From: a bacterium
GTDB lineage: Bacteria > Patescibacteriota > Minisyncoccia > Minisyncoccales > GWA2-46-15
Assembly (NCBI GenBank): GCA_030693425.1
Contig: JAUYAM010000001.1
Coordinates: forward strand, 10,858-74,857
Reading direction: 5' to 3'
DNA: 64,000 nucleotides
Part shown: one piece after another, positions 3,623 through 51,733 of the stretch
How the letters are laid out: each line of letters begins with the position of its first letter
Position numbering within the stretch: the stretch's first letter is position 1
Notes under the pieces: model-generated
Told to the model about the DNA's origin: nothing
Seen by the model: only the letters and a program-made list of their open reading frames with translations
Database searches by the model: none
Program-made: the position numbers and the translations under genes

Positions 3623-6325
3623 CTAGGCAACCGGAGCTTTTTCTTTGGCTTCTGCCTTGACGTTTTTAATAGATTTTGGCAGGGGAAAAACGATCTTGCC
3701 GTTTTCTTCATCAACCAAAACCGGAACTCCTGATTCTATCTCGGCCGTCACCAGTTTTAAAGCCAGGGGATCTAAGATCAGCTGCTGGATAACTCTTTTG
3801 AGAGGCCGGGCTCCCAGGTTCTGATCAAAGCCTTTGCCAACCAAAAACTCCTTGGCTTTTTCAGAAAATCCGAGCTCAATCTTCTTGGTTTTCAGCCTGG
3901 CAGTAACTTTCCCCAGCTCGAGCTCAACGATCTTCCTGATCTCGTCCTTGCCGAGATAGTTGAAGACAATGATCTCGTCAACCCGATTCAGAAATTCGGG
4001 CCTAAAAGTATCTTTCAAAGCCTGAAGAACCTTGTCTTTCAGGGATTCTCTCATGGAATTGCTTTCGTCTCCGGAAGTAAACCCTAAAGCCGCCTCTCTG
4101 GTGATAATCTCAGACCCAGCATTTGAGGTCATAACCAGAATGGCGTTTTTAAAAGAAGCGACTCTGCCCTTGGCATCGGTTAATCTGCCATCTTCGAGTA
4201 TCTGCAAGAGCATGTTAAAAACCTCGGGGTGGGCTTTTTCGATCTCGTCGAGAAGAACAACGCTGTAAGGGCGCCGGCGGATCTTTTCGGTCAGCTGGCC
4301 GCCCTCTTCGTAACCGACGTAGCCAGGGGGGCTACCTATCATTTTTGAAACCGTATGCTTTTCCATATACTCCGACATATCAAGCCTGATCATGGCGTTC
4401 TCGTCATTAAAAAGGAACCCGGCCAAGGCCCTGGCGGTCTCGGTCTTGCCGACTCCGGTCGGACCCAAGAACATGAAAGACCCCAACGGCCGGTTCTCTT
4501 CTGAAATGCCGACCCGGGACCTGCGAATGGCGTTGGCGATCGCTTTAATGGCTTCGCTCTGGCCGACAACCCTTTTCGTCAGGATCTCCTCAATTCTGGC
4601 CAGTTTTCTGACTTCTTCTTCCATCAGCCTGGTTACGGGAATGCCCGTCCAGCGGCAAACCACTCCAGCGATGTCTTCCTCGTCGACTTCCTTTTTCAGA
4701 ATTGGCTTTATCCTTTGGACTATTGCCAGCTTCCTCTCAGAGCTTCTCAGCTGTTTTAAAAGTCCGGGGATTTTCCCATACTTTACCTCGGCGACCTTCT
4801 GAAGGTCGCCCTGCCTCTGGGCGGCTTCTGCTAAAAATTGAGCTTCTTCAATTTCCTTTCTTAAATCCTTGATTTTATCAACAATCTCTTTCTCGCCTTT
4901 CCACCGGCCCTCGATCGCCTTGATCCTCTCGCTTAAATCAGCTAACTGCCGGGAAACCGTCTTAATTTTCCTGGCAGACCCCTTTTCGTTCTTTAAGGCC
5001 TGCTTTTCAATCTCTAGTTTCTGGGCTTCCCTTTTCAAATTCTCCAGGTCTGCCGGCTCAGACTCCATTTCCAGTTTTAAAGAACTCATGGCCTCGTCCA
5101 TCAAGTCAACTGCCTTATCCGGCAAGAATCTGTCAGGAATATACCTGGCAGACAATTCAGCTGCCGCCCTCAGGGCAAAATCCTTGATTTTGACACCGTG
5201 ATACAACTCGTACTTTTCCCTGATCCCTCTCAAAATCAAAACGGCGTCTTCGATTGAGGGTTCGGCTACGTAAATGGGCTGGAATCTTCTTTCCAGAGCC
5301 GGGTCCTTTTCAACGTATTTCTGATACTCCTTGAGAGTGGTGGCGCCGATCGCCCGCAACTCTCCCCTGGCCAAAGCCGGCTTTAAAAGGTTAGAAGCGT
5401 CAATAGCGCCTTCGGCGGCCCCGGCTCCGACCAAAGTGTGAAGCTCGTCAATAAAAAGGATATAGCGGCCCGAGGCCCGATTAACTTCTTTCAGCAAGGC
5501 CTTGATCCTGTCTTCGAACTCGCCCCGATACTTTGTTCCGGCGATAATCGCGCCCAAATCCAGGGCAATGATTTCCTTGTCTCTCAAGCTCTGAGGAACT
5601 TCTGAATTGATAATCCTTTGAGCTAAGCCTTCAACGACCGCGGTCTTGCCGACTCCGGCCTCGCCGATCAGAACCGGATTATTCTTGGTCCGCCGAGACA
5701 AAACCTGCATCAGCCTCCTGATTTCGTTCTCTCTGCCAATAACCGGATCCAGTTTTCCCTGCCTGGCCAGCTGGGTCAGATTCCTGGCATACTTTTCAAC
5801 CACCTGGTATTTTGACTCCGGTTCCGGATCGGTAACTCTCTGGCCGCCCCTGATCTGGGCCAGGATTCTCAAAGCTGTTTCGTAGTCTAGCTTGCCGAAT
5901 TCAAGAATGGTTGATCCGTCGCCAATGGCGCTGGCTTTCTCTAAGATGTCTTTGGCCCGGGTCGGCACTGCCAGCAGCGCTAAAAATAAATGCTCGACCG
6001 AAATGAATTCGTCTCCCATTTTCATTGACTCCTGCCTGGCCGTTTCCATCACTCTGCCCATGTCCTGGGTCAGATAGAACTGGCCGAAAGCCTGAGGAGC
6101 AACAATCGTTGATATCTTGGCGATCTCCTGATCAACCTTCTTTCTCAAGGCTTCGCTATCGACTCCAAGTTTTTGCAGAAGACTGGAAACAACGCTTTCT
6201 TCTTCAGAAAGCAAAGCCATTAGCAAATGCAGGGCGTCAATCTGCTGCTGGCCCCTTTCTTGAGCGATGTTTTGAGCCCGGAGAATCGTGTCTTGGGCTT
6301 TGCGGGTAAAATTGCCTCCGTTCAC
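3623..6325 (-). CDS. clpB: ClpB disaggregase (two AAA+ modules plus middle coiled coil)
   Basis: Clp N-domain, Walker [11 protein letters not shown] and GPTGVGKTE, and a long coiled-coil M-domain. 900 aa with a GTG start. Confidence 0.95.
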
Positions 6326-26270: not shown

Positions 26271-28304
26271 TTGTCAATAGCAAGCTATCTCGTCGCCAGC
26301 CTCACCCCCTACTTTCTCAAGAAGAGGTTGTTTTGGTTTGAAAAGAACTTTGAGAAAATCCGTCAGCTGGCCAAAAGCCAGCCCTGGTGGCAAAGAAACT
26401 GCCTGTTTTTGGGAAAAGGTAAATCTTTTCTCTTTTCCAGTCTCGTCCAAAAACTCCTCGACCTTGGCTACGAAAGGGTCCAGGAAATAACTTTCCCGGG
26501 AGAGTTCTCTCAGAGAGGCGGCCTGATCGATGTTTTTCCGATAAACTCTCCGATAGCCTTAAGGCTTGAGTTCTTCGGAAACATTGTTGAAGAAATTCAA
26601 GAGATCTCTTTTAAAATACCGGATGAAAAAAGAGTCAGGCAGGTTCTCGAAGACAAGCTCAAATCCCAAAAGCTTTTCTCTGGCCTGAAAGGCCTGCTGC
26701 CCGGAGACTACGTCGTCCACCTTGACCACGGCGTGGCCAGATTTATAGGTATCTCGTATCTAGTATCTGGTAGCTGGTATCGGGAAAACGAAGTACCGGA
26801 TACTAAATACAAAATACAAGATACCCCCCTTCGCCAAAGCTCCGGAGGGCAGGCAAAATACTATATTTTAGAGTATGCCTCCCAAGACAGGCTTTATGTT
26901 CCCTTAGGGTTAGAAAGAAAGCTGTCTAGATACGTCGGTTTTGTCGAGCCGAAAATCTCAAGACTGGGGTCCCAAGCCTGGCAAAAAACCAAAAGGAAGA
27001 TAAAGCAAGAAGTCGAAAGGTTCGCCAAAGAGCTCCTCCAGATCTATGCCCAGAGGGAAATCGCCTCTCGGCCTCCTTACTCTAAAGACAAGGAGCTGGA
27101 ATTGATTCTGGAAGCCGGTTTTCCTTTTCAGGAAACCGCAGATCAAATCAGAGCTCTGGCGGAAATAGAAAAAGACTTGGGCCGGTCAAAACCAATGGAC
27201 AGATTATTGTGCGGCGACGTGGGATTTGGCAAAACCGAAGTCGCCCTCAGGGCAATGCTGATAGCCGTTTCTGCCGGCTGGCAAGCGGCTTTTCTTTGCC
27301 CGACCACCATTCTGGCAAATCAGCATTTCCAGAATTTCAAACAAAGGCTAAAGAATCTGCCGGTCGGCCTGGCCGTTCTTACCAGGCTTCAGACCAAAAA
27401 AGAACAGAAAGAGACCGTCGAAAAACTGAAATCCGGCAGAGTTGATATTCTCGTTGGCACCCACCGGCTTTTGTCAAAAGACGTTTCCTCCTGCCTGTTT
27501 GGAAAAGGCGGGGGGCTGCTGGTGATTGACGACGAACAAAGATTCGGAGTCAGACAAAAGGAAAAACTGAAAAAGATAAGAGCTTCTCTTGATATCCTTT
27601 CTTTGTCGGCCACGCCCATACCAAGAACCCTTTACCTGGCTCTTTCTTCTTTAAGAGAAATGAGCCTGATTCAGACTCCGCCAAAAGATCGCCTGCCGAT
27701 CAAAACTTTCATAATCCCCTGGTCGGAAAAAACAGTTAAAAAGGCTGTCGATAATGAGATTTCAAGGGGCGGCCAGGTGTATTACCTCCACAACCGAGTT
27801 GCCACTATTGAAAAAGCAAGAGCCTCGCTGGAAAAACTCCTGCCGAGAGTCAAAATTGGCCTGGCTCACGGCCGAATGAAAGAAAAGGCTTTGCTAAAAG
27901 TGATGGCTGATTTCCAGTCAAAAGAAATTGATCTGCTTTTGGCGACGACTATCATTGAAAATGGGATTGATTTTCCCAACGTCAACACCTTGATCGTCGA
28001 AGACGCCAGCCGGCTGGGCCTGGCCCAGGCCTACCAAATCAGAGGCAGAGTCGGCAGGTTCTCTTCCCAAGCCTTTGCCTATTTCCTGCACCCGCAAAGA
28101 CTTCTAATGAAAGCTAAACAAAGATTGACTGCCTTAAAGCAGGCAGAAACTTTGGGTTCCGGCTGGCAGATCGCCATCAAAGACCTGGAAATCAGAGGAG
28201 CCGGCAACATCTTAGGGAAAGAGCAATCCGGCAGCATCAACCAAGTTGGATTAAACCTCTACTGCCAAATGCTTTCCGAAACAGTGGCCAGACAAAAAAC
28301 CTAA
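26271..28304 (+). CDS. mfd: Transcription-repair coupling factor Mfd (short form)
   Basis: CarD/TRCF RNAP-interaction block GDYVVHLDHGVARF, helicase motifs GDVGFGKTEVA, IDDEQRFG and QIRGRVGR, and a TRG-like LEIRGAGNILGKEQSG. TTG start. Only 677 aa. Confidence 0.9.
   Translation: MSIASYLVASLTPYFLKKRLFWFEKNFEKIRQLAKSQPWWQRNCLFLGKGKSFLFSSLVQKLLDLGYERVQEITFPGEFSQRGGLIDVFPINSPIALRLEFFGNIVEEIQEISFKIPDEKRVRQVLEDKLKSQKLFSGLKGLLPGDYVVHLDHGVARFIGISYLVSGSWYRENEVPDTKYKIQDTPLRQSSGGQAKYYILEYASQDRLYVPLGLERKLSRYVGFVEPKISRLGSQAWQKTKRKIKQEVERFAKELLQIYAQREIASRPPYSKDKELELILEAGFPFQETADQIRALAEIEKDLGRSKPMDRLLCGDVGFGKTEVALRAMLIAVSAGWQAAFLCPTTILANQHFQNFKQRLKNLPVGLAVLTRLQTKKEQKETVEKLKSGRVDILVGTHRLLSKDVSSCLFGKGGGLLVIDDEQRFGVRQKEKLKKIRASLDILSLSATPIPRTLYLALSSLREMSLIQTPPKDRLPIKTFIIPWSEKTVKKAVDNEISRGGQVYYLHNRVATIEKARASLEKLLPRVKIGLAHGRMKEKALLKVMADFQSKEIDLLLATTIIENGIDFPNVNTLIVEDASRLGLAQAYQIRGRVGRFSSQAFAYFLHPQRLLMKAKQRLTALKQAETLGSGWQIAIKDLEIRGAGNILGKEQSGSINQVGLNLYCQMLSETVARQKT
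26749..26853. repeat. Composite in-frame insertion in mfd (AT-rich palindromic arms plus a GC-rich hairpin)
   Basis: Left arm ggtatctcgtatctagtatctggtagctggtatcggg. Right arm gtaccggatactaaatacaaaatacaagatac. Then the hairpin CCCTTCG-N9-CGGAGGG at 26827-26849. Together they encode SYLVSGSWYRENEVPDTKYKIQDTPLRQSSGGQA. Confidence 0.8.
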
Positions 28305-28383
28305 AAAAAGTGTATCCTGAAAAAACTTGGCAAAAAAATTGAAATAAGCCGCTAAAATCGTATCAGGTTTTGCTAATTGTTGC

Positions 28384-28411
28384 TTGACAAACATTTCGTA
28401 AGAGCTACAAT
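28384..28411 (+). promoter_or_regulatory. Sigma70-like promoter giving a (near) leaderless HTH mRNA
   Basis: TTGACA (28384-28389), 16 nt spacer, TACAAT (28406-28411). The ATG at 28418 is only 6 nt after the -10 box. Confidence 0.5.
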
Positions 28412-28417
28412 TAAATA

Positions 28418-28591
28418 ATGGATAAGCTTCTTACTCCAAAACAAGTAGCAAATAAATTAGGCGTTAGCGAATATACAATCTGGCGATATATTAAAGCTGG
28501 AAAACTTAAGGCTATTAAGCTTACTCTCAGAAATTTTAGAATTGAGGAAAAAGATTTAATTCAATTTCTTAAAAAACATAAAACAAAATGA
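28418..28591 (+). CDS. Excisionase-family HTH DNA-binding protein (57 aa)
   Basis: MDKLLTPKQVANKLGVSEYTIWRYIKAGKLKAIKL matches the excisionase/MerR-type HTH pattern. Below the ORF-track length cutoff. Confidence 0.75.
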   Translation: MDKLLTPKQVANKLGVSEYTIWRYIKAGKLKAIKLTLRNFRIEEKDLIQFLKKHKTK

Positions 28592-28645
28592 AAGAAAAAT
28601 TAAATAGTCGTGTTTTCGTGCTAAATTTAAATTATTTAACTAAGA

Positions 28646-29776
28646 ATGTATAAATATTGGTCAAATAAAGAGGTTTCTCTTCTAAAAAAGTTTTATCCTA
28701 AATTGATAGTTAGAGAATTGGCAAAGATGTTTCCAAATCGAACTAAGGCCACAATTGCAGTTAAAGCATTTAGCTTGGGTCTACCATCAGCAAAATTATG
28801 GCAATCGGAAGAAAATGATATACTTTACAAAGATTTTGCTGAAGCATCAGAAGAAAAACTTCTAAAGCTTTTACCAAAAAGATCATGGTCAGCAATCTTA
28901 GCCCAAGGAGAAAGGATAGGATTAAAACGCAAGATAGATGGGCCTAAATTAAGAGTTAATGAAGATTATTTCAAAAAGTGGTCTTCTAATATGGCTTATA
29001 TTCTCGGGTTTATTTTTGCTGATGGCTCAATTATTAAAGTAACCCACAATGGATGTAGCGACAGATTAAGCTTTGGTCAAAGTAGAAAAGATATAGATAT
29101 ATTAAGAAAAATAAAACAAAAGTTTTCAGCAGAACAAACTTTATCAATAGGGGAAAAATATGTCCATTTTTCTATCCATAGTCAAGTAATCGTTGATGAT
29201 TTAAAGAAGTTAGAGGTGACATACAGAAAAAGTTTCCGAAAAACTCGTGGGAAAATTCCAAATATTCCTTATAAATACATACGGGATTTTATCCGCGGCA
29301 TAGTAGACGGAGACGGGAGCATAAATTTTAACAAAAAGGGCCGACAAAAGGGCTACCCAAATTTAAGCATTTGCGGCAAAAAAGAAGTTATGGCCTTCAT
29401 TAGAGATCATTTTCTTTCTAAATTCAATATTTATTCTAAAATTAGCCAAGGGAAGAAAAATGGTAAACTATCCAATGTTTTTTATATTTGCTATAGATGC
29501 AATTCGGCTAAAACTTTGATAAATTATCTTTATAACAATGCTAATTTGTATCTCAAAAGAAAGTTTAAATTAGCAAAACAATGTTCGAAAATAGAAATGA
29601 AACATAGAAAAAATTACAATAAACAAGAAAATAAAATTATACAAGAATTTTATTCTTTGTTACCTAAAAATAAGTTTTTCTTGAAATTACCAAATCGAAG
29701 TTGGTCAAGTATTCAACAGCAGACACGAAAATTAGGAATTTATAAATATAAGATAAAAAATAAATTATGCGCTTGA
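28646..29776 (+). CDS. Free-standing LAGLIDADG homing endonuclease with three Myb/SANT-like repeats
   Basis: LAGLIDADG motifs MAYILGFIFADGSI and FIRGIVDGDGSI. Three repeats of roughly 45 aa ending in P-x-R-(S/T)-(W/K)-x-(A/S)-I...LG(L/I), two N-terminal and one C-terminal. Confidence 0.85.
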   Translation: MYKYWSNKEVSLLKKFYPKLIVRELAKMFPNRTKATIAVKAFSLGLPSAKLWQSEENDILYKDFAEASEEKLLKLLPKRSWSAILAQGERIGLKRKIDGPKLRVNEDYFKKWSSNMAYILGFIFADGSIIKVTHNGCSDRLSFGQSRKDIDILRKIKQKFSAEQTLSIGEKYVHFSIHSQVIVDDLKKLEVTYRKSFRKTRGKIPNIPYKYIRDFIRGIVDGDGSINFNKKGRQKGYPNLSICGKKEVMAFIRDHFLSKFNIYSKISQGKKNGKLSNVFYICYRCNSAKTLINYLYNNANLYLKRKFKLAKQCSKIEMKHRKNYNKQENKIIQEFYSLLPKNKFFLKLPNRSWSSIQQQTRKLGIYKYKIKNKLCA

Positions 29777-31893
29777 TTCTGGTGGAAAGCCCTACAAAAT
29801 CAAACACAATCAAAAAATTCCTTGGCAAAGACTATGAAGTGGCAGCCACTTTCGGTCATATTAGAGACTTGCCTGAAGGCAATTTTGGCATTGATCTGAA
29901 AAACAACTTTAAACCAGAATATGTCATCCCAGCCAAAGCGAAAAAAACTATTGCCAGTTTGAAAAAACTGGCAAAAACAGCAGAAAGCGTAATTTTAGCG
30001 GTTGACGAGGATCGCGAAGGAGAAGCCATTGCCTGGCATTTAACCAAGGCTTTGGGGCTCAAAAAATATCAACGAATCGCCTTTCACGAAATTACCAAAC
30101 CAGCGATTGAAGAAGCTTTAAAAAACCCCAGGGAGATTGACATGAATTTGGTCAACGCCCAGCAAACAAGAAGAATCTTGGACAGGATCGTCGGCTACAA
30201 ACTCTCTCCTTTCCTGTGGAAAAAGATTGCCTGGGGCCTGTCAGCCGGCAGGGTCCAATCGGTCGCTGTCAGGCTGATAGTCGAAAGAGAAAGGGAAATA
30301 AAAAGCTTTATCCCTCAAGAATACTGGCAGATAAAAGCTCTTTTGGAAAAGTTAAACCTCAAGGGTTCGGAATTCGAAGCCTTCCTGGCCAAAAAGAATG
30401 ATAAGGCTGTTTCCAAGCTCGAAATTAAAACTGAAAACGAAGCTTCCGAAATCGTTAAAGACTTGGAGGGAGCAGACTACAGAGTAATCGATATCGAAAG
30501 AAAAGAGACCAGAAAATCTCCTCTGCCGCCTTTTACCACTTCAACTCTCCAGCAGGAAGCCTGGCGAAGGTTTCATTTCTCGGCCAAGATGACAATGCGG
30601 CTAGCCCAGCAACTTTATGAAAGAGGGCTTTGTTCTTACCACCGCACCGATTCTTTTAATCTTTCGGAAATCTCTTTGGCCGCCGCCAAAGAATATATAC
30701 TGAAAAACCTCGGCAAGGAATACTGGCCGGGATTTTCCAGGAAATACAAGACCAAATCCAAATCAGCCCAGGAAGCCCACGAGGCGATCCGGCCAACGGA
30801 TCCTTTCAGGGATCCGCCCTCCGTAGCCTTGTCGCCGACGCGCCATAGCCGCTTTGGCGACGGCACGGCGAAGGAGGGCTTTGCCGAAGCGGCATTCAAG
30901 CTTTACGCCCTGATCTGGCAAAGGTTCCTGGCCTGTCAAATGTCAGAAGCGATTTTTGACTCAACTATAGTCGACATTCTCGCTGAAAAACCTAAAAGTT
31001 CGACTGTCTATGCCCTTCGGGCAACCGGCCAAACAATGAAATTTGCCGGCTTTCTAAAGGTTTACCCTCTGAAATTTGAAGAGATAAATCTGCCTTATTT
31101 GGAAAAGAATGAATCTTTAAAGTTGATAAAGGTCTCCCCTTCCCAACATTTTACCCAGCCGCCGAATCGCTATTCTGAAGCGACCCTGGTAAAAGCTTTA
31201 GAAAAGTTCGGCATTGGCCGACCCTCGACCTACGCCCCGACTCTGGAAACCATCCAAACCAGAGGCTATGTCCAGAAAGACGAAAAAAAGCTCTTTTTCC
31301 CCGCCGATATAGGCTTCCTGGTCAACGATCTTTTGGTTAATCATTTTCCCAAAATCGTTGACGTCGCTTTTACGGCCAAAATGGAGGAAGAGCTGGACCA
31401 AGTCTCTTCGGGAAAAAAAGAATGGCTGCCGGTCATTGAGGAATTCTATATTCCTTTCAAAGAAAATTTAAAAACAAAAGAAAAAGAAGTTTCTAAAGAG
31501 GACCTTCTCAAGGAATTCTCCAAAGAAGAGATAAAAGAGACTTGCCCTCTCTGTCAGAGCCTCCTGAATGTCAAATTCAGCAGGTATGGAAAGTTCTATG
31601 CCTGTTCTAAGTTTCCCGAATGCAAATACAAAAAAAATCTCCTTGTTTCCCTTGGAATAAAATGCCCGAAATGCCAACAAGCAGAAATAGTTGAAAGAAA
31701 AACCAGAAAGCAGAAAAGGTTTTACGGCTGCTCTAGGTGGCCCGACTGCGATTTTGCTCTTTGGGACAAACCCACCGGCCAGAACTGTCCTGCTTGTGAC
31801 TCTTTGATGGTTAAAACCCGCTGGCGCAAAGAAAAATGTTCTAACAAAGACTGCAAGACTAATTCCTACGGCGATGCCAAAACAGACTCTTGA
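29767..31893 (+). CDS. topA: DNA topoisomerase I
   Basis: Toprim start MRLILVESPTKSNTIKKFLG, QEAHEAIRPT, and C-terminal Cys4 zinc ribbons. Overlaps the homing endonuclease end by 10 nt. Confidence 0.95.
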   Translation: MRLILVESPTKSNTIKKFLGKDYEVAATFGHIRDLPEGNFGIDLKNNFKPEYVIPAKAKKTIASLKKLAKTAESVILAVDEDREGEAIAWHLTKALGLKKYQRIAFHEITKPAIEEALKNPREIDMNLVNAQQTRRILDRIVGYKLSPFLWKKIAWGLSAGRVQSVAVRLIVEREREIKSFIPQEYWQIKALLEKLNLKGSEFEAFLAKKNDKAVSKLEIKTENEASEIVKDLEGADYRVIDIERKETRKSPLPPFTTSTLQQEAWRRFHFSAKMTMRLAQQLYERGLCSYHRTDSFNLSEISLAAAKEYILKNLGKEYWPGFSRKYKTKSKSAQEAHEAIRPTDPFRDPPSVALSPTRHSRFGDGTAKEGFAEAAFKLYALIWQRFLACQMSEAIFDSTIVDILAEKPKSSTVYALRATGQTMKFAGFLKVYPLKFEEINLPYLEKNESLKLIKVSPSQHFTQPPNRYSEATLVKALEKFGIGRPSTYAPTLETIQTRGYVQKDEKKLFFPADIGFLVNDLLVNHFPKIVDVAFTAKMEEELDQVSSGKKEWLPVIEEFYIPFKENLKTKEKEVSKEDLLKEFSKEEIKETCPLCQSLLNVKFSRYGKFYACSKFPECKYKKNLLVSLGIKCPKCQQAEIVERKTRKQKRFYGCSRWPDCDFALWDKPTGQNCPACDSLMVKTRWRKEKCSNKDCKTNSYGDAKTDS
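30799..30893. repeat. GC-rich palindromic in-frame insertion in topA
   Basis: GGATCC-TTTCAG-GGATCC at 30799-30816. Long imperfect palindrome GCCCTCCGTAGCCTTGTCGCC...GGCGACGGCACGGCGAAGGAGGGC at 30816-30879. GCCG-AAG-CGGC at 30883-30893. Together they encode PFRDPPSVALSPTRHSRFGDGTAKEGFAEAAF. Confidence 0.8.
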
Positions 31894-34915: not shown

Positions 34916-34972
34916 AATAATAAAAGAAAGATGACTGGAAAAAATACTGAAGCAAAGTGGCAATAAAATCAC

Positions 34973-35055
34973 GGGCAAGTGGTGGAATGGTTTACACGCA
35001 GCTCTCAAAAAGCTGTGGACGCAAGTCCATGTGGGTTCGACTCCCACCTTGCCCA
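34973..35055 (+). tRNA. tRNA-Leu (anticodon CAA)
   Basis: Manual cloverleaf fold. Acceptor GGGCAAG/CTTGCCC. D arm GTG-GAATGGTTTA-CAC. Anticodon arm CAGCT-CTCAAAA-AGCTG. Long variable arm GGAC-GCAA-GTCC. T arm GTGGG-TTCGACT-CCCAC. Discriminator A. CCA is not encoded. Confidence 0.95.
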
Positions 35056-35061
35056 CTAAAT

Positions 35062-35856
35062 ATGCCTGCCCATAAATTACCAGACAAAGATTTCTCTTGG
35101 ACACCCAAATTAGCCTATGCGATCGGATTATTAACCACCGACGGCAATTTGAGTGGCGATGGACGAGATATGAGTATGAGGTCTTCGGATATCCAACTAC
35201 TTAAAACCTTCAAACAGTGCCTGGGGTTGAAGAATAAAATAGCTCGATCAAAAAATGACGGTTGGGCAACAAAACCTTCATACAGAGTACAATTTGGCAA
35301 CGTACAATTTTATCAATGGCTTCTAAAAATCGGGCTGTTTCCTGCTAAAACTTATACAATAGGTGAATTAAAAATCCCTGACGAATGTTTTCGGGACTTT
35401 TTAAGAGGACATCTTGATGGAGATGGTTCTGTTTGGACATATAAAGATAGGTGGAATACTTTTAAAAACGCTAAATACGTCTATACTCGTTTATGGGTGA
35501 GATTCATCTCTGCAAGCAAAAACCATATTCAATGGCTAAAAGAAAACATCAGTAAATTGACCAAACTAAATGGTCATGTCTGGGAAAGAAAACCGTCCCG
35601 ATCATATCAAACTACGAGTATATGGGAAATAAAATTTGCCAAGAAAGAATCGATAAAACTACTCCAATGGCTTTATTACAAAAAAAATCTTCCTTGCCTT
35701 GAAAGGAAAAGAAAAATAGCTCTTCGGGCGATGGCAATAATTTCTAAAGAAAAAAGGCGTAAATATACGAAACAAGGACTTAATAATCTCAAGATTCCCG
35801 TGGGTCAAGTCAATAACCAGAAAAATTATCTTTGCCCTCGACTCAAAATCGTGTGA
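35062..35856 (+). CDS. Free-standing LAGLIDADG homing endonuclease
   Basis: LAYAIGLLTTDGNL and FLRGHLDGDGSV. The start was moved to ATG 35062 (MPAHKLPDKDF), because the longer ORF reads through the tRNA. Confidence 0.85.
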   Translation: MPAHKLPDKDFSWTPKLAYAIGLLTTDGNLSGDGRDMSMRSSDIQLLKTFKQCLGLKNKIARSKNDGWATKPSYRVQFGNVQFYQWLLKIGLFPAKTYTIGELKIPDECFRDFLRGHLDGDGSVWTYKDRWNTFKNAKYVYTRLWVRFISASKNHIQWLKENISKLTKLNGHVWERKPSRSYQTTSIWEIKFAKKESIKLLQWLYYKKNLPCLERKRKIALRAMAIISKEKRRKYTKQGLNNLKIPVGQVNNQKNYLCPRLKIV

Positions 35857-36006
35857 GGTAACCCCTCGTGTGGGCCTGCCCCGTATAATCGCCATCATGA
35901 CGCGAAGCTGTAAGCTTTGGGAATGAAAAGATTTATACGGGGTTCGGGGAGTCATCCGACTCCCCGCCCAGTCGAATGACTGGGCGACTCCCTCTCCCGG
36001 CACCAT
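35857..36006 (+). ncRNA. Unassigned GC-rich structured region (candidate RNA element)
   Basis: 10-bp stem CCCCGTATAA (35879-35888) / TTATACGGGG (35933-35942) enclosing AAGCT-GTA-AGCTT. Then two adjacent perfect 8-bp hairpins: GGGGAGTC-ATCC-GACTCCCC (35946-35965) and GCCCAGTC-GAAT-GACTGGGC (35966-35985). The tail is ...CCCGGCACCA. No family recognised. Confidence 0.3.
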
Positions 36007-36008
36007 TA

Positions 36009-36036
36009 CAAAAAAGCTACGACCGTAGCTTTTTTG
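36009..36036. terminator. Bidirectional intrinsic terminator
   Basis: AAAAAAGCTAC-GACC-GTAGCTTTTTT, located between the homing endonuclease/RNA unit (+) and folD (-). Confidence 0.7.
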
Positions 36037-36080
36037 TATTAGATTGAAATCTGATATTTTTCTCTCTTTGACGGAGAATT

Positions 36081-36920
36081 CTAATTCCGTTGAATTTGGC
36101 TAATTTTAACTAAGTTTTCTAGAAGACAGGCGACGGCCAAAGGCCCGACGCCTCCGGGAACCGGCGAAATAAAGCCGGCTTTTTTGGAAACGCTTTTAAA
36201 ATCAACGTCGCCGCAGGTTCTCCCGCTTTCAACGCTCGTGCCGCAGTCAACGACCGTAGCTCCCCTTTTTACCATCGAACCCTTGATCAGGCGCGGACTG
36301 CCGGCGCCGGAAATGATAATATCTGCTTTTTTGAGCTTACCGGCAATATTCTTTGTCTTTCTGTCGCAAACAACTACCTTCGCTCCTTGTTGTTTTAGCC
36401 AGATACTTACCGGCAGTCCAACTAAGCGGCCTTGGCCGACAACAACCGCGTTTTTCCCTTTAGCCCTGATTTTGTATTCTTTGAAGAATTTGGCAATAGC
36501 GGCAACCACCGGCGGCAAAACCTGATTACTCCCTTTGCTGAATTTCTCAAGACGCTTTTCACCCAAGCAATCTGGATCTTTTGCCGGCGGTATCAAATTC
36601 AAAAATGATTGGGTAGTAGCACGGTCAAACGGCAAAGGCAATTGGATAACCACTCCTGAATTAGCCCGGTCGCGGACAATCTTCTCAATTTCTTTTTTAA
36701 ACTCTGCCTTGCTGATATTTCCAGGAAAACCGAGAGCTTGAAAACCGATGCCTGCCTTTTCGCAGGCCTCTCTTTTTTTCCTTAGATAAGTTTTGCCTAC
36801 TTTGTCTTCGCCGACAAAAACAACCGCTAATTTTAATTTCAATTTGCGGTTTTTAATTTCTTGGGCGACTGCCAGCAAAATCCTTTCGCTCAACTTTTTC
36901 CCGTCAAGAATTCTTGCCAT
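36081..36920 (-). CDS. folD: Methylene-THF dehydrogenase/methenyl-THF cyclohydrolase
   Basis: ILDGKKLSERI start and PGGVGPLAVACLLEN end, typical of FolD. Confidence 0.95.
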   Translation of the reverse strand: MARILDGKKLSERILLAVAQEIKNRKLKLKLAVVFVGEDKVGKTYLRKKREACEKAGIGFQALGFPGNISKAEFKKEIEKIVRDRANSGVVIQLPLPFDRATTQSFLNLIPPAKDPDCLGEKRLEKFSKGSNQVLPPVVAAIAKFFKEYKIRAKGKNAVVVGQGRLVGLPVSIWLKQQGAKVVVCDRKTKNIAGKLKKADIIISGAGSPRLIKGSMVKRGATVVDCGTSVESGRTCGDVDFKSVSKKAGFISPVPGGVGPLAVACLLENLVKISQIQRN

Positions 36921-38275: not shown

Positions 38276-39391
38276 TTAAAAATTTAAGTTCGGCTGACGA
38301 TCCAGAGAATCGATATCTTTGGCGAAATCTCCTCGCTTTGCCTGGAAGAAAGCGCAGACTCCGATCATGGCGGCGTTGTCGGTGAAGAGATTCTTGTGAT
38401 ACGGCTGGAAAACCTTTAAGCCGTATTCCCCTGCCGCTTTCCTCGCCGCTTTTCTTAAGGGCAAATTATTGATCACTCCCCCGCCCAAGACAACCTGTTT
38501 TGGCCGGTATTGTTCAATCGCCTTTTCTAATTTTATTATCAGGGCCTCAACCACCGTTTTTTCAAAGGAAACGGCAAAATCGCAGTAGAATTGTTTACCC
38601 GCCGTAGCCCTCGGGGCGAAGGCGGGCCTGTCCCCCGTTAATCCCAGCTTCTGCAATTTATACAGGCAAGCGGTTTTTAATCCGGAAAAACTGAAATTCA
38701 AGTCGCCCGAACCCGCCATGGGCACGGGTAAATCATAGATCGGCCTGCCGGTTTTGGCTAACTCAGAAATAATCGGCCCGCCAGGATATCCCAACCCCAG
38801 CATTTTCGCCACCTTATCAAAGGCCTCACCAGCCGCGTCATCTAAGGTTTCTCCTAAAAGCCGGTATTTGCCAAAACCTTTCATCAAAACCAACTGAGTG
38901 TGGCCGCCGGAAACCAAAAGGCCTAAAATGGGAAATTTCGGCCTCACGATAGAAAGCAATCTTTTACGTTTTAAGTTTTTGGCCTGCCCGCCTGAATTTT
39001 TCCTTGAAAAATTTGGGAGGGCGAAAGAAGAAAGCAAATGCCCTTCCATGTGGTTGACGGCGATTATCGACTTTCTATATTGTTTGGCCAACTCCTTTAT
39101 CTTGGCAATTCCCACTTCCAAAGCTGGCGCTAACCCCGGACCAACCGTCACTGCCAAGGCGTCAATTTCAAGCCATCGGAGACCCGCTCTCCGTAAAGCT
39201 TCGTTGATAGTTGGTTCAATGAATTCCTGGTGTTTTCTTTTAGCCAAAGAGGGGTAAACCCCGCCGTAGGGTTTATGAAACTCTACTTGCGAGGCAATGA
39301 CATTAGACAAAACGCGATCGTTTGAAGTGACGGCAACGCAAGTATCGTCGCAACTGGTATCAATAGCTAAAATGGTAAAACTCTTTTTCAC
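38276..39391 (-). CDS. tsaD: tRNA t6A37 threonylcarbamoyltransferase TsaD
   Basis: ILAIDTSCDDTCVAV, NHMEGHLL and LVSGGHTQL. Carries two lineage-specific insertions. Confidence 0.9.
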   Translation of the reverse strand: MKKSFTILAIDTSCDDTCVAVTSNDRVLSNVIASQVEFHKPYGGVYPSLAKRKHQEFIEPTINEALRRAGLRWLEIDALAVTVGPGLAPALEVGIAKIKELAKQYRKSIIAVNHMEGHLLSSFALPNFSRKNSGGQAKNLKRKRLLSIVRPKFPILGLLVSGGHTQLVLMKGFGKYRLLGETLDDAAGEAFDKVAKMLGLGYPGGPIISELAKTGRPIYDLPVPMAGSGDLNFSFSGLKTACLYKLQKLGLTGDRPAFAPRATAGKQFYCDFAVSFEKTVVEALIIKLEKAIEQYRPKQVVLGGGVINNLPLRKAARKAAGEYGLKVFQPYHKNLFTDNAAMIGVCAFFQAKRGDFAKDIDSLDRQPNLNF

Positions 39392-46896: not shown

Positions 46897-49479
46897 TTAA
46901 ATTACAAAATTGATTAGCCTGCCCTGAACGAAAATCACCTTTTTTATTTGTTGGTCTTTAAGATATTTTGCGACTCGTGGCTCCTTTTTTGCCAACTCTT
47001 CAACCTCACTTTGCACTTTACGCTCTTGCCCCGTAGCTCCGCCAGCTGGCGGATGCTTCAGGGTTGCTACTTTAATTTCCCCCCTCACCCTTCCCGACAC
47101 CTGAATGATAATAGTTGTTGTTTCTTCGGTAATCAGATTTCTATCGTATTCGGGCCATTTTTCTTGGTGTACGGAAAACTTATTCCCTAAAATTTCACAC
47201 CAAACTTCTTCGCTAAAATGCGGGGCCGAAGGCGCCAGAATCTCGGCGAATAGAGCCGCGTCCTGTTTTGATAAATAACTTTGCTGCCACTCGTTGATAA
47301 ATTCCATCAAGCAGGCGACCATGGTGTTGAATTTCAGATTCTCTATATCTTCACCGACTTTTTTAATTGTCTGGTGCAGTTTTCTTAAGATATCGTCGGG
47401 AGTCTTTTCCTCTTTTACCTTTTCCTGAAACAATCTCCAAGCCCGGTTCAAAAACCTAAAACAGCCCTGCAGGCTCTGTTCTGACCAAGCAATGGCCTGA
47501 TCAAAAGGCCCCATAAACATTTCGTAAAGCCGCAAGGTGTCGGCGCCGTATTTAGCCACGATCTCATCCGGGTTGACCACATTGCCAAAAGACTTTGACA
47601 TTTTTCGATTGTCCGGCCCTAAAACAATGCCGTGGGACCTTCTTTTAGCATAGGGCTCGGGACCGTTAACGACGCCAATATCATATAGGAACTTATAGAT
47701 GAACCTGGAATACAGCAGGTGTAGAGTCGTATGCTCAAATCCGCCCTGATAAATATCAACCGGCATCCAGTATTTAATCTGCTCTTTGTATTCTTCAAAA
47801 ATGTTCGTCTCACCCGACGCGTTAGAATTTTTATCTTTGATTTTTGATTTTTTATTTCCGAGGTTATTTATTAGCAAATAGCCGAGGTAGTACCAGTTTG
47901 ACCCGGCCCAGTTAGGCATAGTGTCTGTTTCCCGACGGCCTGGCCCGCCGCAGTTTGGACAAGTTGTTTCAACCCATTCTTTAATGTTGGCCAAAGGCGA
48001 TTCGCCCGTGCCTGACGGTTCGTACTTTTCCACGTAAGGCAATTCCACGGGTAAATCCTTTTCCGGCACCGGGATTATCGCATATTCAATTCCGTTTTCA
48101 ACGGTCGTTAGTAATTTTTTATTTTTTATTTTTAATTTTTCATTTTCCAGGCATTTACGGCAGTAAATGACTGGAATGGGTTCTCCCCAGTAGTGCTGCC
48201 TGGAAAAAATCCAATCTCGCAGATGATAATTAATCGATTTCTTGCCCCAACCTTTTTCCACTAGATGATTTATAATTTTTTCTTTTGCCTCAAGGGCTGG
48301 CAAGCCATTCAGAAATTCCGAATTAAAAATTTTTGCCTTATCAATACCAACAAATGGCTCTTTGGAAAAGTCCCATTGTTTGTCATTTTCCGGCTTTACT
48401 ACCGGCACAATCTCTAAATCGTATTTTTTAGCGAACTGCCAGTCACGCTTGTCATGAGCTGGCACACCAACAACCATGCCTGTACCCGCAGATAGAATCG
48501 CAAAATCAGCCACCCAAATCGGCATTTTCCTGTTGTTAAGACGATTCAAGGCGTAACTCCCGGTAAAAACTCCTGTTTTTTCTTTTTCAAGATCAATTCT
48601 TTCAACTTCCGATTTTTTCTTTGTCTGCTGAATATAATCTTCAATCGCTTTTTTATTATCCGGGGTTATCAAAACCGGAATTAAAGGATGCTCCGGAGCG
48701 ACAACGACAAAGGTAGCGCCAAAATTAGTGTCCGGCCTAGTGCTGTAACAAGAAATGGCTTTACCAATGCCCACAACGGGATACTCAATTACCACGCCCT
48801 CTGACTTGCCAATCCAATTTTCCTGTTGAACTGCAATCTTTGGCGAAAAATCAACCAAATTTAAATCGTCCAAAAGCCGTTGGGCATATTTGGTAATGCG
48901 CAAAATCCATTGCTCCTGCTGCCTTTTTTCAGTGGGATTGTCGCATCTTTCATGGCTGCCGTCGGCTAAAACCTCTTCGTCAGCCAAAGTGGTTTTGCAA
49001 GAAGGGCACCAATTAACCGAAGTTTCCGCCCGATAAGCCAGACCTTTTCCCAAAAGTTTAAGAAAGATCCACTGGGTCCACTTATAATATTTAGGGTCGG
49101 TAGTATTGATTTCCCGCGACCAGTCAAAAGAAAGGCCTAATGATTTAATCTGCCTCTTAAATGTGGCAATATTCTGAGCCGTGGTTATAGAAGGGTGAAG
49201 TTTGTTTTTGAGAGCGTAATTTTCTGCCGGCAAGCCAAAAGCGTCCCAGCCAATCGGAAACAAAACATTATATCCTTGCATCCGCTTTTTACGAGAATAA
49301 GCATCCATGGCTAACCAAGACCTTGCATTCCCGACATGAAACCCGGCGCCCGACGGATAAGGAAACTCAATCAGAGCAAAAAACTTGGGTTTCTTGTCAA
49401 AATCAGCTGCTTGATACAGCTTTTCTTTTTCCCACTTATCCTGCCACTTTTTCTCAATTTTTTGCGGTTCGTAAAGCAT
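46897..49479 (-). CDS. leuS: Leucyl-tRNA synthetase
   Basis: FPYPSGAGFHVGN (HIGH-type), an editing domain, and RKMSKSFGN (KMSKS). Confidence 0.95.
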   Translation of the reverse strand: MLYEPQKIEKKWQDKWEKEKLYQAADFDKKPKFFALIEFPYPSGAGFHVGNARSWLAMDAYSRKKRMQGYNVLFPIGWDAFGLPAENYALKNKLHPSITTAQNIATFKRQIKSLGLSFDWSREINTTDPKYYKWTQWIFLKLLGKGLAYRAETSVNWCPSCKTTLADEEVLADGSHERCDNPTEKRQQEQWILRITKYAQRLLDDLNLVDFSPKIAVQQENWIGKSEGVVIEYPVVGIGKAISCYSTRPDTNFGATFVVVAPEHPLIPVLITPDNKKAIEDYIQQTKKKSEVERIDLEKEKTGVFTGSYALNRLNNRKMPIWVADFAILSAGTGMVVGVPAHDKRDWQFAKKYDLEIVPVVKPENDKQWDFSKEPFVGIDKAKIFNSEFLNGLPALEAKEKIINHLVEKGWGKKSINYHLRDWIFSRQHYWGEPIPVIYCRKCLENEKLKIKNKKLLTTVENGIEYAIIPVPEKDLPVELPYVEKYEPSGTGESPLANIKEWVETTCPNCGGPGRRETDTMPNWAGSNWYYLGYLLINNLGNKKSKIKDKNSNASGETNIFEEYKEQIKYWMPVDIYQGGFEHTTLHLLYSRFIYKFLYDIGVVNGPEPYAKRRSHGIVLGPDNRKMSKSFGNVVNPDEIVAKYGADTLRLYEMFMGPFDQAIAWSEQSLQGCFRFLNRAWRLFQEKVKEEKTPDDILRKLHQTIKKVGEDIENLKFNTMVACLMEFINEWQQSYLSKQDAALFAEILAPSAPHFSEEVWCEILGNKFSVHQEKWPEYDRNLITEETTTIIIQVSGRVRGEIKVATLKHPPAGGATGQERKVQSEVEELAKKEPRVAKYLKDQQIKKVIFVQGRLINFVI

Positions 49480-50399: not shown

Positions 50400-50520
50400 A
50401 ATCCCATTTTAACCTAATTTTGCCGTCTCTGAAACAATTCTCTTGTCCGATGCGGTACCCGAATTTAGTAAAATTAAGGTACTCAAGTATCTGATTTAAA
50501 TACCCATTGATTTGAGTTTA

Positions 50521-50557
50521 AAAAAACAAAAGCGCCTCGGGTTCTTCCCAAGGCGCT
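50521..50557 (-). terminator. Intrinsic terminator closing the micro-peptide locus
   Basis: Hairpin AGCGCCT-N13-AGGCGCT at 50531-50557, followed on the minus strand by TTTGTTTTTT. Confidence 0.7.
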
Positions 50558-50572
50558 TTGTGCTATTTTTGA

Positions 50573-50776
50573 CTAATAACCTCCTCCGCCATGATGAAGG
50601 TGTGTTTCGGCCAACTTCTCGGCTGCCAGCTCGAGCGCCTTGGCCTCGTCCCAATATTTCACCGCATGCTGACGGTCTTTGGTTTCCTTCATCCTTTCGT
50701 AAAGATCTTGCGCCTGATCTCTCATCTCCCCAATAACCTTACTCCAATCAATCTCGCTAACATCTTTGGTGGTCAT
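50573..50776 (-). CDS. Hypothetical 67-aa helical protein
   Basis: The SD GAGAGGAG sits 6 nt before the ATG. MTTKDVSEIDWSKVIGEMRDQAQDLYERMKE...HLHHGGGGY. Confidence 0.6.
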   Translation of the reverse strand: MTTKDVSEIDWSKVIGEMRDQAQDLYERMKETKDRQHAVKYWDEAKALELAAEKLAETHLHHGGGGY

Positions 50777-50788
50777 GACAATCTCCTC

Positions 50789-50929
50789 TCATTGTTTTGA
50801 GTTATCGCGGGCAATTAAACAGAAAGCCACGATCATGGCCGCGACCAATAGAACGAACGCGACGACTGATCCTGTCCCCGTCAAAACGCAAGGGTCGCAA
50901 GCGATAGCAGACAAGCCATATGGGATCAT
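50789..50929 (-). CDS. 46-aa single-TM micro-protein
   Basis: SD AAAAGGAGATTTGAG precedes the ATG. MIPYGLSAIACDPCVLTGTGSVVAFVLLVAAMIVAFCLIARDNSKQ. Below the ORF-track cutoff. Confidence 0.5.
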   Translation of the reverse strand: MIPYGLSAIACDPCVLTGTGSVVAFVLLVAAMIVAFCLIARDNSKQ

Positions 50930-50968
50930 CTCAAATCTCCTTTTATGATCGGCAAAAGATAAAAGGGT

Positions 50969-50996
50969 GAGGCGACGGCGTACGCTCCGTCGCCTC
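50969..50996 (-). terminator. Intercistronic hairpin/partial terminator after the 19-aa peptide gene
   Basis: 10-bp stem GAGGCGACGG-N8-CCGTCGCCTC, followed on the minus strand by ACCCTTTTATCTTTTG. Confidence 0.5.
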
Positions 50997-50999
50997 CTT

Positions 51000-51059
51000 C
51001 TACGACGCCCACGGCCCGTAACGGAAAGTACAGCGGCCGCGGAAAGACCAACGAACCAT
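51000..51059 (-). CDS. 19-aa cationic peptide MVRWSFRGRCTFRYGPWAS
   Basis: SD AGAAAGGAGG precedes the ATG. It is a paralog of 51307-51390, and codons 3-12 differ from that paralog mostly by synonymous changes. Confidence 0.6.
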   Translation of the reverse strand: MVRWSFRGRCTFRYGPWAS

Positions 51060-51099
51060 AGCTACCTCCTTTCTTGTCAAAGAACTGTCGGTCTCGGCT

Positions 51100-51129
51100 A
51101 AAACAAAAACTGGCCCGCCGAGAGACCAG
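51100..51129 (-). terminator. Attenuator terminator C
   Basis: Minus-strand RNA CUGGUCUCUCGGCGGGCCAG followed by UUUUUGUUUU. It lies between micro-ORF P1 and the SD of the 19-aa peptide gene. Confidence 0.6.
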
Positions 51130-51168
51130 TTTTAGAAAGTCAAGGTTTTTAAATGGATTACTATTATA

Positions 51169-51279
51169 TTACCTCAACGCGCCGAAACTAACCTCTGGCA
51201 AAATAAGAGGATAATAGTAATAATAGGCATTGCCTTGAACGGCGTCCTGAATATTAAATTTGCTAAATTTTTGTGTCAT
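51169..51279 (-). CDS. Aromatic-codon micro-ORF P1 (candidate leader peptide)
   Basis: MTQKFSKFNIQDAVQGNAYYYYYPLILPEVSFGALR, with five consecutive Tyr codons. The decoy GAGGUUAGUUU (51195-51185) can pair with terminator C's 5' arm (51132-51122). Confidence 0.5.
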   Translation of the reverse strand: MTQKFSKFNIQDAVQGNAYYYYYPLILPEVSFGALR

Positions 51280-51306
51280 ATAAATTGGTATTCTTAAGCT
51301 TTAACT

Positions 51307-51390
51307 TTAATGGGGAGGATAGATTATTCTATCCTCCGATTGACCGATGAACCAAAATGTGCACCGGCCGCGGAAAGTCCATCGACGCAT
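51307..51390 (-). CDS. 27-aa cationic peptide MRRWTFRGRCTFWFIGQSEDRIIYPPH
   Basis: SD AAAGGAGA precedes the ATG. It shares RW(S/T)FRGRCTF with 51000-51059. The 3' end is encoded by a 9-bp hairpin at 51314-51337. Confidence 0.6.
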   Translation of the reverse strand: MRRWTFRGRCTFWFIGQSEDRIIYPPH

Positions 51391-51404
51391 GGCGTCTCCT
51401 TTCT

Positions 51405-51542
51405 TTAGAAGCCCTGTTGTGGAGGAAGAACTATTATCCACCACGGGATCGATCCACTGTCGCTACGACTAACAATCATTATCGTAGCGACAAGAACGAC
51501 GACAGAAAGAACAACAATTAAGATAATCTTTCTGTTTTTCAT
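51405..51542 (-). CDS. 45-aa single-TM micro-protein
   Basis: SD AGAAAGGAGG precedes the ATG. MKNRKIILIVVLSVVVLVATIMIVSRSDSGSIPWWIIVLPPQQGF. Confidence 0.5.
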   Translation of the reverse strand: MKNRKIILIVVLSVVVLVATIMIVSRSDSGSIPWWIIVLPPQQGF

Positions 51543-51573
51543 TCCGCACCTCCTTTCTTGGAGAGTAAAGAAC

Positions 51574-51598
51574 TAAAAACTGGTCTCCGCGAAACCAG
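51574..51598 (-). terminator. Attenuator terminator B
   Basis: Minus-strand RNA CUGGUUUCGCGGAGACCAG followed by UUUUU, directly before the SD of the 45-aa gene. Confidence 0.65.
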
Positions 51599-51636
51599 TT
51601 GTAGAGAGTCAAAAGATTTTTAAAAATTCCCTTACT

Positions 51637-51714
51637 TTAACGCTCTAAAACTAGTCTCTGGAAAAGACTATAGAAGTAGTTAAAGTAAAAGAATTTTTGC
51701 GATTTCTGTTTCAT
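51637..51714 (-). CDS. Aromatic-codon micro-ORF P4 (candidate leader peptide)
   Basis: MKQKSQKFFYFNYFYSLFQRLVLER, with 8 Phe/Tyr in 11 codons. The decoy GAGACUAGUUUUAG (51658-51645) is complementary to CUACAACUGGUUUC (51604-51591). Confidence 0.5.
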   Translation of the reverse strand: MKQKSQKFFYFNYFYSLFQRLVLER

Positions 51715-51733
51715 ATGTTGAAAATTAACATAA

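Follow-up and report, generated by a model that had tools for sequence, protein, structure and literature searches.

How do short palindromes come to lie, in frame, inside conserved bacterial genes? The stretch of DNA considered here (64,000 nucleotides, nt; contig JAUYAM010000001.1 of assembly GCA_030693425.1, positions 10,858 to 74,857; called the window throughout) raises this question in topA, tsaD, leuS and mfd. The closest named relatives of its TopA are Parcubacteria/Kaiserbacteria, members of the Patescibacteria, also known as the Candidate Phyla Radiation (CPR). A preliminary description reported related GC-rich hairpins in all four genes; all four are indeed present and in frame, but the one in leuS turns out to be only a degenerate relative of the others. 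Are these hairpins copies of one element? Is it the DNA or the encoded peptide that is conserved? Where else does the element occur, and how did it reach these genes? The answer that we consider probable is that they are copies of a short, non-autonomous palindromic repeat, similar to repetitive extragenic palindromic (REP) sequences, which is tolerated in permissive loops of the host proteins.

One hairpin unit in several genes

The unit is about 30-33 nt long, with hairpins of 28-31 nt, and has a constant layout. Read from its 5' end, it has an unpaired CYTG tag, then a GC-rich stem of 6 bp (Y-CCKCC), an internal 3x3 loop that sets GNA against GAA or GGA, an inner stem clamped by GC, and a small loop. 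The copies in topA, tsaD and mfd share this architecture: a GC stem of 6-7 bp (CCnCC/GGnGG) with a compensatory T-A or G-C in its middle, a purine 3x3 loop of G(T/G)A versus GAA, a GC(C)/(G)GC inner stem and then the loop. They lie in both orientations relative to the coding strand, as had been proposed, forward in topA and reverse in tsaD and mfd.

The topA copy (30816..30879, plus strand, in the open reading frame (ORF) 29767-31893 of the same strand) encodes PPSVA...AKEG. Its left half consists of GCCCTCC (30816-22), GTA (30823-25) and GCC (30826-28), and its right half of GGC (30867-69), GAA (30870-72) and GGAGGGC (30873-79). What fills the space between them? An architecture scan and folding place there, on the plus strand at 30829..30866, a degenerate second hairpin nested in the apical loop, which can be parsed as GTCGCC GAC GCG CCATAGC CGC TTT GGCGAC at 30831-30861 or, alternatively, as GCGCC ATA GCC GCTTT GGC GAC GGCAC. 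The nested hairpin is not found in L001, a relative with the simple copy only, and its ATA/GAC loop variant occurs in L105. The region 30816-30879 had been described as an insert after the conserved AHEAIRPT; the extra residues stand, and the insert itself is now seen as an outer copy holding a second hairpin. Small hairpins of other sequence flank the copy: GGATCC-N6-GGATCC just upstream (30798..30815, plus strand, encoding DPFRDP) and TGCCG-AAG-CGGCA downstream (30882-30894). The DNA of the GGATCC hairpin is nearly identical in L001, L004 and L085, even though gene identity is only about 60-66%.

In tsaD (minus strand, 38276-39391) the copy lies on the plus strand at 38597..38627, reads A CCCGCC GTA GCCC TC GGGGC GAA GGCGGG C and encodes RPAFAPRATAGK; it is identified by a covariance model (34.6 bits, E 2e-5), by its fold (z-score -2.4) and by comparison with orthologs. 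The mfd copy occupies the minus strand at 26823..26850 within a plus-strand gene (26271-28304), reads GCCTG C CCTCC GGA GC TTTG GC GAA GGGGG G with the CCTG tag at its 5' end, and encodes PLRQSSGGQA; here the covariance model (37.6 bits, E 5e-6) and ortholog comparison agree. The leuS hairpin (47029..47063, plus strand, in the minus-strand gene 46897-49479), defined by sequence and fold, reads CCCC GTA GC TCCGCCAGCTGGCGGA T GC TTC AGGG and encodes HPPAGGATGQ. It has only the left word and the TCCGCC/GGCGGA arms in common with the family, its 3' internal loop is TTC and not GAA, and its covariance-model score (11.6 bits, E 3.4) is at noise level. The insertion is real and in frame, but it is treated here as no more than a degenerate relative of the family.

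Decayed copies can be discerned as well. A second insert in tsaD holds, by sequence comparison, a decayed copy on the plus strand (38981..39030) that still has its whole tag and left arm (CCTG C CCGCC; CCTGCCCGCC), followed by an AT-rich hairpin and then GGGAGGGCGAA. It encodes ..NSGGQAK.., and its SGGQA frame matches the read-out of the mfd copy; this second insert is common to L329 and L331 and is not in L330 or L332. With low confidence, TCCTCCTGCCTGTTTGGAAAAGGCGGGGGG in mfd (27486..27518, plus strand, encoding SSCLFGKGGG) may be a further relic: the Mfd of L004 has an intact reverse copy at this site, and the covariance model misses the window relic. Among the window copies, only the mfd copy and the decayed tsaD copy have the CCTG tag. 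The window thus holds 3 intact and 2-3 decayed copies in 64 kb, all inside genes.

Is the motif above chance? The GC content of the window is 43.8% and GC-rich stretches are common in it, so GC-richness alone is not diagnostic of the hairpins. The words that had been taken as the family signature are, singly, barely enriched: there are 5 matches to CCGTAGC where 2.6 are expected (a number that 13 of 100 shuffles equal or exceed), and 6 to GGCGAAGG where 2.8 are expected (4 of 100 shuffles). Two of the five CCGTAGC matches are unrelated to the element, one of them, at 36023, lying in a terminator stem. With each word near chance, single-word statistics were rejected as evidence and only the two-part motif is informative: CCTTCGC-N(2-32)-GCTMCGG has 2 matches in the window against 0.02 expected (0 of 100 shuffles), and the long-loop pattern of the topA copy has 1 match against 0.06. 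Three other lines were also set aside. A generic scan for stem, 3x3 loop and stem with no sequence constraints was swamped by AT-rich and perfect hairpins. In five of its six frames the unit is free of stop codons. By our own estimate, however, the same would hold for about 65% of random 30-mers with 67% GC, and the argument that stop-free frames are a sign of adaptation was dropped. The likeness of GGCGAAGGCGG to a conserved segment of 16S rRNA was judged coincidental. At gathering score, Rfam 15 finds only a tRNA-Leu in the window and nothing in 20 element-bearing loci.

What, then, is conserved? In an alignment of 13 copies from the window and its relatives, 96.6% of cells are paired and 18 cells are changed on both sides, a result that none of 500 shuffles reaches; G-T/G-U pairs are present in these stems. 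An independent covariation test used positions left free by the search pattern in 244 distinct copies listed from metagenome and viral contigs, and all counts out of 239 or 244 below refer to these listed matches. Watson-Crick pairing at -1/+1 is found in 191 of 239 copies (T-A in 90, C-G in 85), the outermost loop bases, which form a third inner pair, are complementary in 208 of 244, and longer loops add 2-3 further pairs. The next base outside the stem is unpaired, but it is C in 75% of the listed copies, and A-A/G-G follows. This conserved flank is an unpaired tag, CYTG on the forward strand and RCA[AG]G on the other, found in 78 of the 239 copies. The read-outs differ accordingly with frame and strand: (P/L)(P/S)(S/A)VA..AK(E/A)(G/D) forward, P(S/A)FA..A(S/T)A(D/G)K in reverse frame a and LR..(Y/S)GGQA in reverse frame b, with PPSVA..AKEG, PAFA..ATAGK and LRQSSGGQA as examples. 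Since one DNA unit, read in three frames and both orientations, gives such different peptides, a motif at the protein level is ruled out.

The proteins nevertheless carry the consequence. As the preliminary description expected, all four sites consist of added residues when compared with orthologs and solved structures from the PDB. TopA has about 17 residues more than E. coli TopA (1cy9, 1ecl), and after AHEAIRPT most of 60 CPR TopA orthologs are shorter than the window protein. TsaD has 12 aa at site 2 with no counterpart in solved structures or in L002/L086. A further insert in TsaD comprises about 27 aa, and residues 124-150 of the window protein find no partner in the alignment to solved TsaD. 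Mfd has about 25 aa more than the L004 protein, in which the mfd-copy segment is missing, and LeuRS has 12-13 extra aa in its C-terminal domain relative to E. coli LeuRS and L004. A surface loop had been anticipated for such inserts, and the AlphaFold2 model of TopA agrees: its mean pLDDT is 77.7, and residues 358-371, which are the insert, form the only internal segment below pLDDT 50, a predicted disordered loop between helices 350-354 and 374-391.

Distribution, gain and decay of the copies

TopA-site inserts recur through the CPR. A forward copy at one and the same codon is common to the window, L001, L004 and L085, and in L004 and L085 a reverse copy comes after it; at the same site L088 has a reverse copy, L002 and L086 have nested reverse copies, and decayed versions occur elsewhere. 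How far beyond these relatives does the family reach? The covariance model, run with default filters on 83 topA loci (1.43 Mb; 80 from named genomes, mostly distant TopA genes among the matches listed), finds copies in four loci only: three relatives that had been retrieved through their proteins (L001, L002 and L004) and L009, a named Patescibacteria genome. A looser regular-expression scan of the topA loci gives 20 matches against 7 in the null, and every convincing one is in CPR relatives.

Outside topA the picture is much wider. At least 120 stretches in metagenome contigs, and at least 120 loci in IMG/VR contigs (L209-L328), match CCGCCTTCGC-N(3-9)-GCTNCGGCGG, on contigs that range from 32% to 75% GC among the matches listed. 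Chance matches are possible in GC-rich DNA, but the covariation at the free positions indicates that most are real. The CPR copy of L088, which was found by topA homology and not by the pattern, matches the commonest metagenome variant including its loop CAAG and tail ACAAG. On contigs of low GC content, other essential genes with an in-frame copy are those for DnaE, IleRS (two copies) and triose-phosphate isomerase, and about half of the copies listed from these contigs are intergenic. A high-GC host gene encodes an AddA/UvrD-type helicase whose closest named relative is from the Vicinamibacterales (Acidobacteriota; 74% identity), and the loop in which its copy lies is hypervariable and has gathered other repeat-like peptides too. 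Near-identical units of 28-34 nt, tag and internal loop included, are thus found in topA, tsaD, mfd, dnaE, ileS, tpiA, addA and intergenic DNA. Most are singletons (225 of 239); an inverted partner lies within 6 nt in the other 14. GTAG occurs 8-16 nt upstream in 11 of 239 copies, and the GTAG-headed examples that were inspected are inverted dimers. Some high-GC copies are inverted doublets inside a GTAG-headed outer stem, much like REPINs. Judged from these sequences, the family is not CPR-specific and reaches far beyond this genome, and the presence of near-identical units in Patescibacteria, Acidobacteriota and IMG/VR viral contigs suggests horizontal spread.

Several observations on these contigs may be recorded here. 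The matching IMG/VR contigs, which are classed as viral, mostly have 55-71% GC among the matches listed, and in L275 and L297 the copy comes directly after the 3' end of a tRNA. On L107, a metagenome contig of 41% GC, a family copy abuts, in the segment 3033-3129, the 5' end of a tRNA-Ala gene, and a stem-only mini-hairpin, CCCGCC-GGACA-GGCGGG, is found near it at about 3184-3200. Among the Vicinamibacterales-like AddA/UvrD helicases (P0121-P0180), the loop near residue 975 of P0121, where the family unit lies, is replaced in relatives by other short repeated peptides (EPRTPNP, ASRIPDP) that look like read-outs of other repeat families.

Can the gain of a unit be seen directly? Among TsaD relatives that are 73-79% identical, site 2 is filled in some and empty in others: the empty alleles read LQKLP-KPW-NKQFY and the filled ones LQKLG-IVAD-KPAFAKASAG-KQFY. 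The filled tsaD allele of L331 equals an empty allele plus 10 codons, and these 30 nt are exactly one unit, C-CCACC-TTC-GC-TAAA-GC-TTC-GGCGG-G-CAAG. Just before this unit stands GGCGGACAAG, which repeats its final 10 nt. L330 goes one step further, with a 39-nt unit inserted into the apical loop of its tsaD copy at T^AAA. Nesting in a resident apical loop has therefore been found in three independent cases (window topA, L002/L086 and L330 tsaD), and decayed versions are present at orthologous sites. Among the 244 copies listed, 122 are 30 nt and 54 are 33 nt long, and 72% have lengths that are multiples of three; this clustering could reflect reading-frame filtering or founder variants.

How the hairpins may have reached and kept their sites

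In the reading that we favour, a tolerated REP-like repeat, the genome gains whole units, as is shown by tsaD alleles, filled and empty, that differ by exactly 30 nt. Copies then persist only where they are harmless, in disordered surface loops and in a stop-free frame, where 8-22 extra residues would be translated; in a gene-dense CPR genome the harmless sites are just such loops. The inserts would presumably be retained in mRNA and protein. Resident copies in turn become landing sites, as the three nestings show, and later decay in place, as the orthologous sites show. What would move them? The hairpin probably extrudes in single-stranded DNA and may be processed in trans by a hairpin-recognising enzyme. 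The obvious candidate would be a Y1 HUH enzyme of the RAYT or IS200-IS605 type, because an imperfect hairpin beside a conserved tetranucleotide is the type of substrate used by RAYTs and IS200/IS605 transposases (PMC3733652).

Several results weigh against this reading. When three RAYT/TIRYT sequences and the L107 protein were used as tblastn queries, neither the window nor the CPR loci gave a Y1 transposase. Of about 240 loci that carry the element, a single one, again L107, has a Y1_Tnp gene (5464-5901, IS200-like), at 2.3 kb from the copy; this gene matches Pfam Y1_Tnp with E 1.5e-9 but, at 36.6 bits, stays below the NCBIfam RAYT cut-off of 80. The copies seen in this genome (3 intact and 2-3 decayed in 64 kb) are too few to establish a high copy number. 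No consistent target site or duplication was found across events, the flanking repeat GGCGGRCAAG being present in one only; likewise, no fixed target tetranucleotide is consistent across events and the three window copies have no common flanks. Some of the high-GC pattern matches may be chance. The topA copy, moreover, is at the same codon though the TopA proteins are only about 62-67% identical, and conservation at its synonymous positions is a little above the average of the gene (P 0.002-0.3 over six pairs). For the topA element and its GGATCC hairpin together, 12 of 14 codons are identical between the window and L001 against a background of 0.45 (P = 0.002). This codon identity is suggestive, but not decisive, of nucleotide-level constraint or homogenisation, and selection on nucleic-acid structure could account for the raised synonymous conservation.

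These last results raise the question of whether the hairpins are kept for a function in cis, either as mRNA structures that slow ribosomes between domains or block RNases, or as DNA hairpins bound by a nucleoid or topology protein, repeats later exapted in either case. The shared topA codon in the window, L001, L004 and L085 despite 60-66% gene-wide nucleotide identity, the codon identity between the window and L001 and the G-T/G-U pairs in the stems all speak for it. Yet copies lie in both orientations inside genes, which gives RNA internal loops that are purine-rich in one case and pyrimidine-rich in the other, the same topA site carries a reverse copy in L088, L002 and L086 and decayed copies in others, and close TsaD relatives do without a copy. 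Neither an Rfam family nor a U-tract accompanies the hairpins, and half of the pairs show a weak signal at synonymous sites, so that a function in cis appears improbable; exaptation, which the preliminary description had entertained, has no evidence in its favour. Could the palindromes instead have arisen in place, again and again, through template switching or slippage acting on quasi-palindromes of permissive loops, with no mobile unit at all? Nested and expanded hairpins at the same sites fit such an origin, as does the repeat of the last 10 nt of the tsaD unit directly in front of it, and the two orientations at one topA site could be an in-place inversion between stem arms. Near-identical units with tag and internal loop are found, however, in unrelated genes, intergenic DNA and different phyla, and local generation would not converge on one sequence; we regard this explanation as quite improbable.

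The remaining two alternatives are less credible still. The inserts might be flexible linkers rich in Ala, Gly, Pro and Lys that are selected at the protein level, with palindromy incidental, and similar peptides (e.g. PSAFAKASADK) do occur in many TopA orthologs. That at least three combinations of frame and orientation of one DNA unit give unrelated peptides, that the stems covary to keep pairing at synonymous and non-coding positions too, that about half of the listed low-GC copies are intergenic and that the TopA segment is predicted to be disordered make this very hard to accept. An identity with DNA uptake sequences, or with another short recognition word of the kind that naturally competent bacteria have in excess in their genome-maintenance genes, is not at all likely either. 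CPR bacteria encode competence genes, dprA adjoins topA in the window, and topA and mfd are among the hosts; but the density is about 1 copy per 20 kb against about 1 per kb for known uptake sequences, the family is common to distant phyla, and it is a structure with covarying stems that is conserved and no fixed word. A bolder variant of the tolerated repeat also deserves mention, although it seems unlikely at present: a cross-phylum hairpin transposon adapted to coding sequence, its commonest lengths of 30 and 33 nt being multiples of three, might target single-stranded hairpin tips, resident apical loops included, move between Patescibacteria and Acidobacteriota, possibly on phages, and be mobilised in trans by a hairpin-recognising enzyme that reads the GNA/GAA loop and the CYTG tag.

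How does a tolerated REP-like repeat compare with systems already described? Di Nocera, De Gregorio and Rocco (2013; PMC3733652) reported GTAG- or CGTC-tagged REPs in more than 80 species of 8 phyla, the GTAG-3 type consisting of a stem, non-complementary trinucleotides and a GC-flanked loop that can be long and self-complementary. They also listed dozens of in-frame intragenic REPs, in about 70 ORFs in Opitutus terrae and as RPE-4/-6 in Rickettsia conorii (RPE, Rickettsia palindromic element; RPE-4 and RPE-6 are classed as CGTC REPs), often in replication and repair genes and tRNA synthetases and encoding 7-30 aa. The behaviour, an in-frame intragenic repeat, is thus already known. Like the GTAG/CGTC REPs, the unit of the window is an imperfect palindrome in the range of 20-40 nt whose stems covary and which has an unpaired tag of 4 nt at one end. 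As in those REPs, copies occur singly or as inverted dimers and can lie in frame inside ORFs, which among the REPs is true of a minority. With the GTAG-3 type it shares the stem, the non-complementary trinucleotides and the GC-flanked loop that can become long and self-complementary. It differs in its tag, which is CYTG and not the terminal GTAG or CGTC of those REPs; G-T-A-G lies in the internal loop here, and a terminal GTAG is found only in the high-GC inverted dimers. Its hosts are Patescibacteria and Acidobacteriota plus viral contigs, and the window copies are all intragenic. The family's peptide read-outs are not in the list of intragenic REPs of PMC3733652, so this is a different sequence family.

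Like the RPEs, the unit comprises palindromes in frame in conserved genes of a reduced genome, presumably translated and at permissive positions, but it is only 30-33 nt long, its host belongs to the Patescibacteria, and it has no sequence relationship with RPEs, which are confined to Rickettsia; it is therefore not an RPE. RPE-1 is about 100-150 bp. The in-frame palindromic insertion in Rickettsia genes that Ogata et al. reportedly described in 2000 agrees with this picture of RPEs. Like the ends of IS200/IS605 elements and of their miniature derivatives, the unit is an imperfect hairpin with unpaired bases beside a conserved tetranucleotide, a kind of substrate that Y1 HUH transposases recognise in single-stranded DNA; unlike them, it has one hairpin per unit and no distinct left and right ends, no linked transposase and no fixed target tetranucleotide. 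In the REPIN-RAYT system (Bertels and Rainey 2011), the inverted doublets resemble the high-GC members, which can fold into one long hairpin with flanking GTAG, and the natural model is that a Y1 transposase present in a single copy mobilises the repeats in trans; the system is described as vertically inherited and lineage-specific, whereas the present unit is common to several phyla. Window copies are single or nested and most copies elsewhere are singletons, not two inverted REPs acting as a unit, which sets them apart from REPINs. The suggestion of a REP- or MITE-like family (MITE, miniature inverted-repeat transposable element) tolerated in coding sequence is supported by covariation, the use of several frames and the filled and empty alleles; terminal inverted repeats with a consistent target-site duplication, the marks of a MITE, were not found, and neither was a related insertion sequence. 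In the literature searched, no paper was found that prints the sequence of the unit or links REPs with the CPR. What is new here is a distinct sequence family, its CYTG tag, its presence in Patescibacteria and the near-identity of units across phyla and viral contigs.

Why does this matter? In-frame palindromic repeats show selfish or neutral DNA remodelling even essential proteins, and they had been documented mainly in Rickettsia, Opitutus and some Proteobacteria. Their occurrence in the minimal genomes of Patescibacteria indicates that streamlining does not purge such elements, and part of the puzzling lineage-specific 'CPR inserts' in conserved proteins is accounted for. For annotation and structure prediction there is a warning: SAFAKA(S/T)ADK, SAVALAKAD and ..YGGQA are repeat read-outs, not protein motifs. 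Finally, cross-phylum near-identity, nesting in loops and a clean 30-nt polymorphism together offer a handle on the poorly understood movement of REP-like elements.

Other features of the window and its relatives

Regional GC content in the window is strongly uneven, from 0.51 at 4001-6000, the region of a 900-aa ORF, to 0.34 at 28001-30000, around dprA. The window Mfd homolog has 677 aa, compared with about 1150 for E. coli Mfd, and its relatives are equally long; its alignment to solved Mfd structures begins around E. coli residue 500, and on this comparison the protein appears to do without much of the N-terminal region. A tRNA-Leu(CAA) gene at 34973-35056 overlaps the start of the listed ORF 34957-35856, whose true start therefore probably lies further downstream. 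Beyond it, the GC-rich intergenic stretch 35857-36040 contains several strong hairpins (CGGGGAGTCATCCGACTCCCCG, CCCAGTCGAATGACTGGG) and closes with the terminator AAAAAAGCTACG-AC-CGTAGCTTTTTT. No Rfam family matches this stretch at threshold and none matches by E-value on 35780-36120; it may be an unannotated small RNA. Another region of about 1.3 kb (50400-51733) has no ORF of at least 100 aa and no Rfam match at gathering score, and within it there is a weak covariance-model match at 51401-51430 (14.9 bits). Inteins turned up twice: a TopA homolog of 1207 aa (P0094) has intein and LAGLIDADG domains, and the NrdD gene that adjoins ftsZ in L087 (1-737) also contains one.

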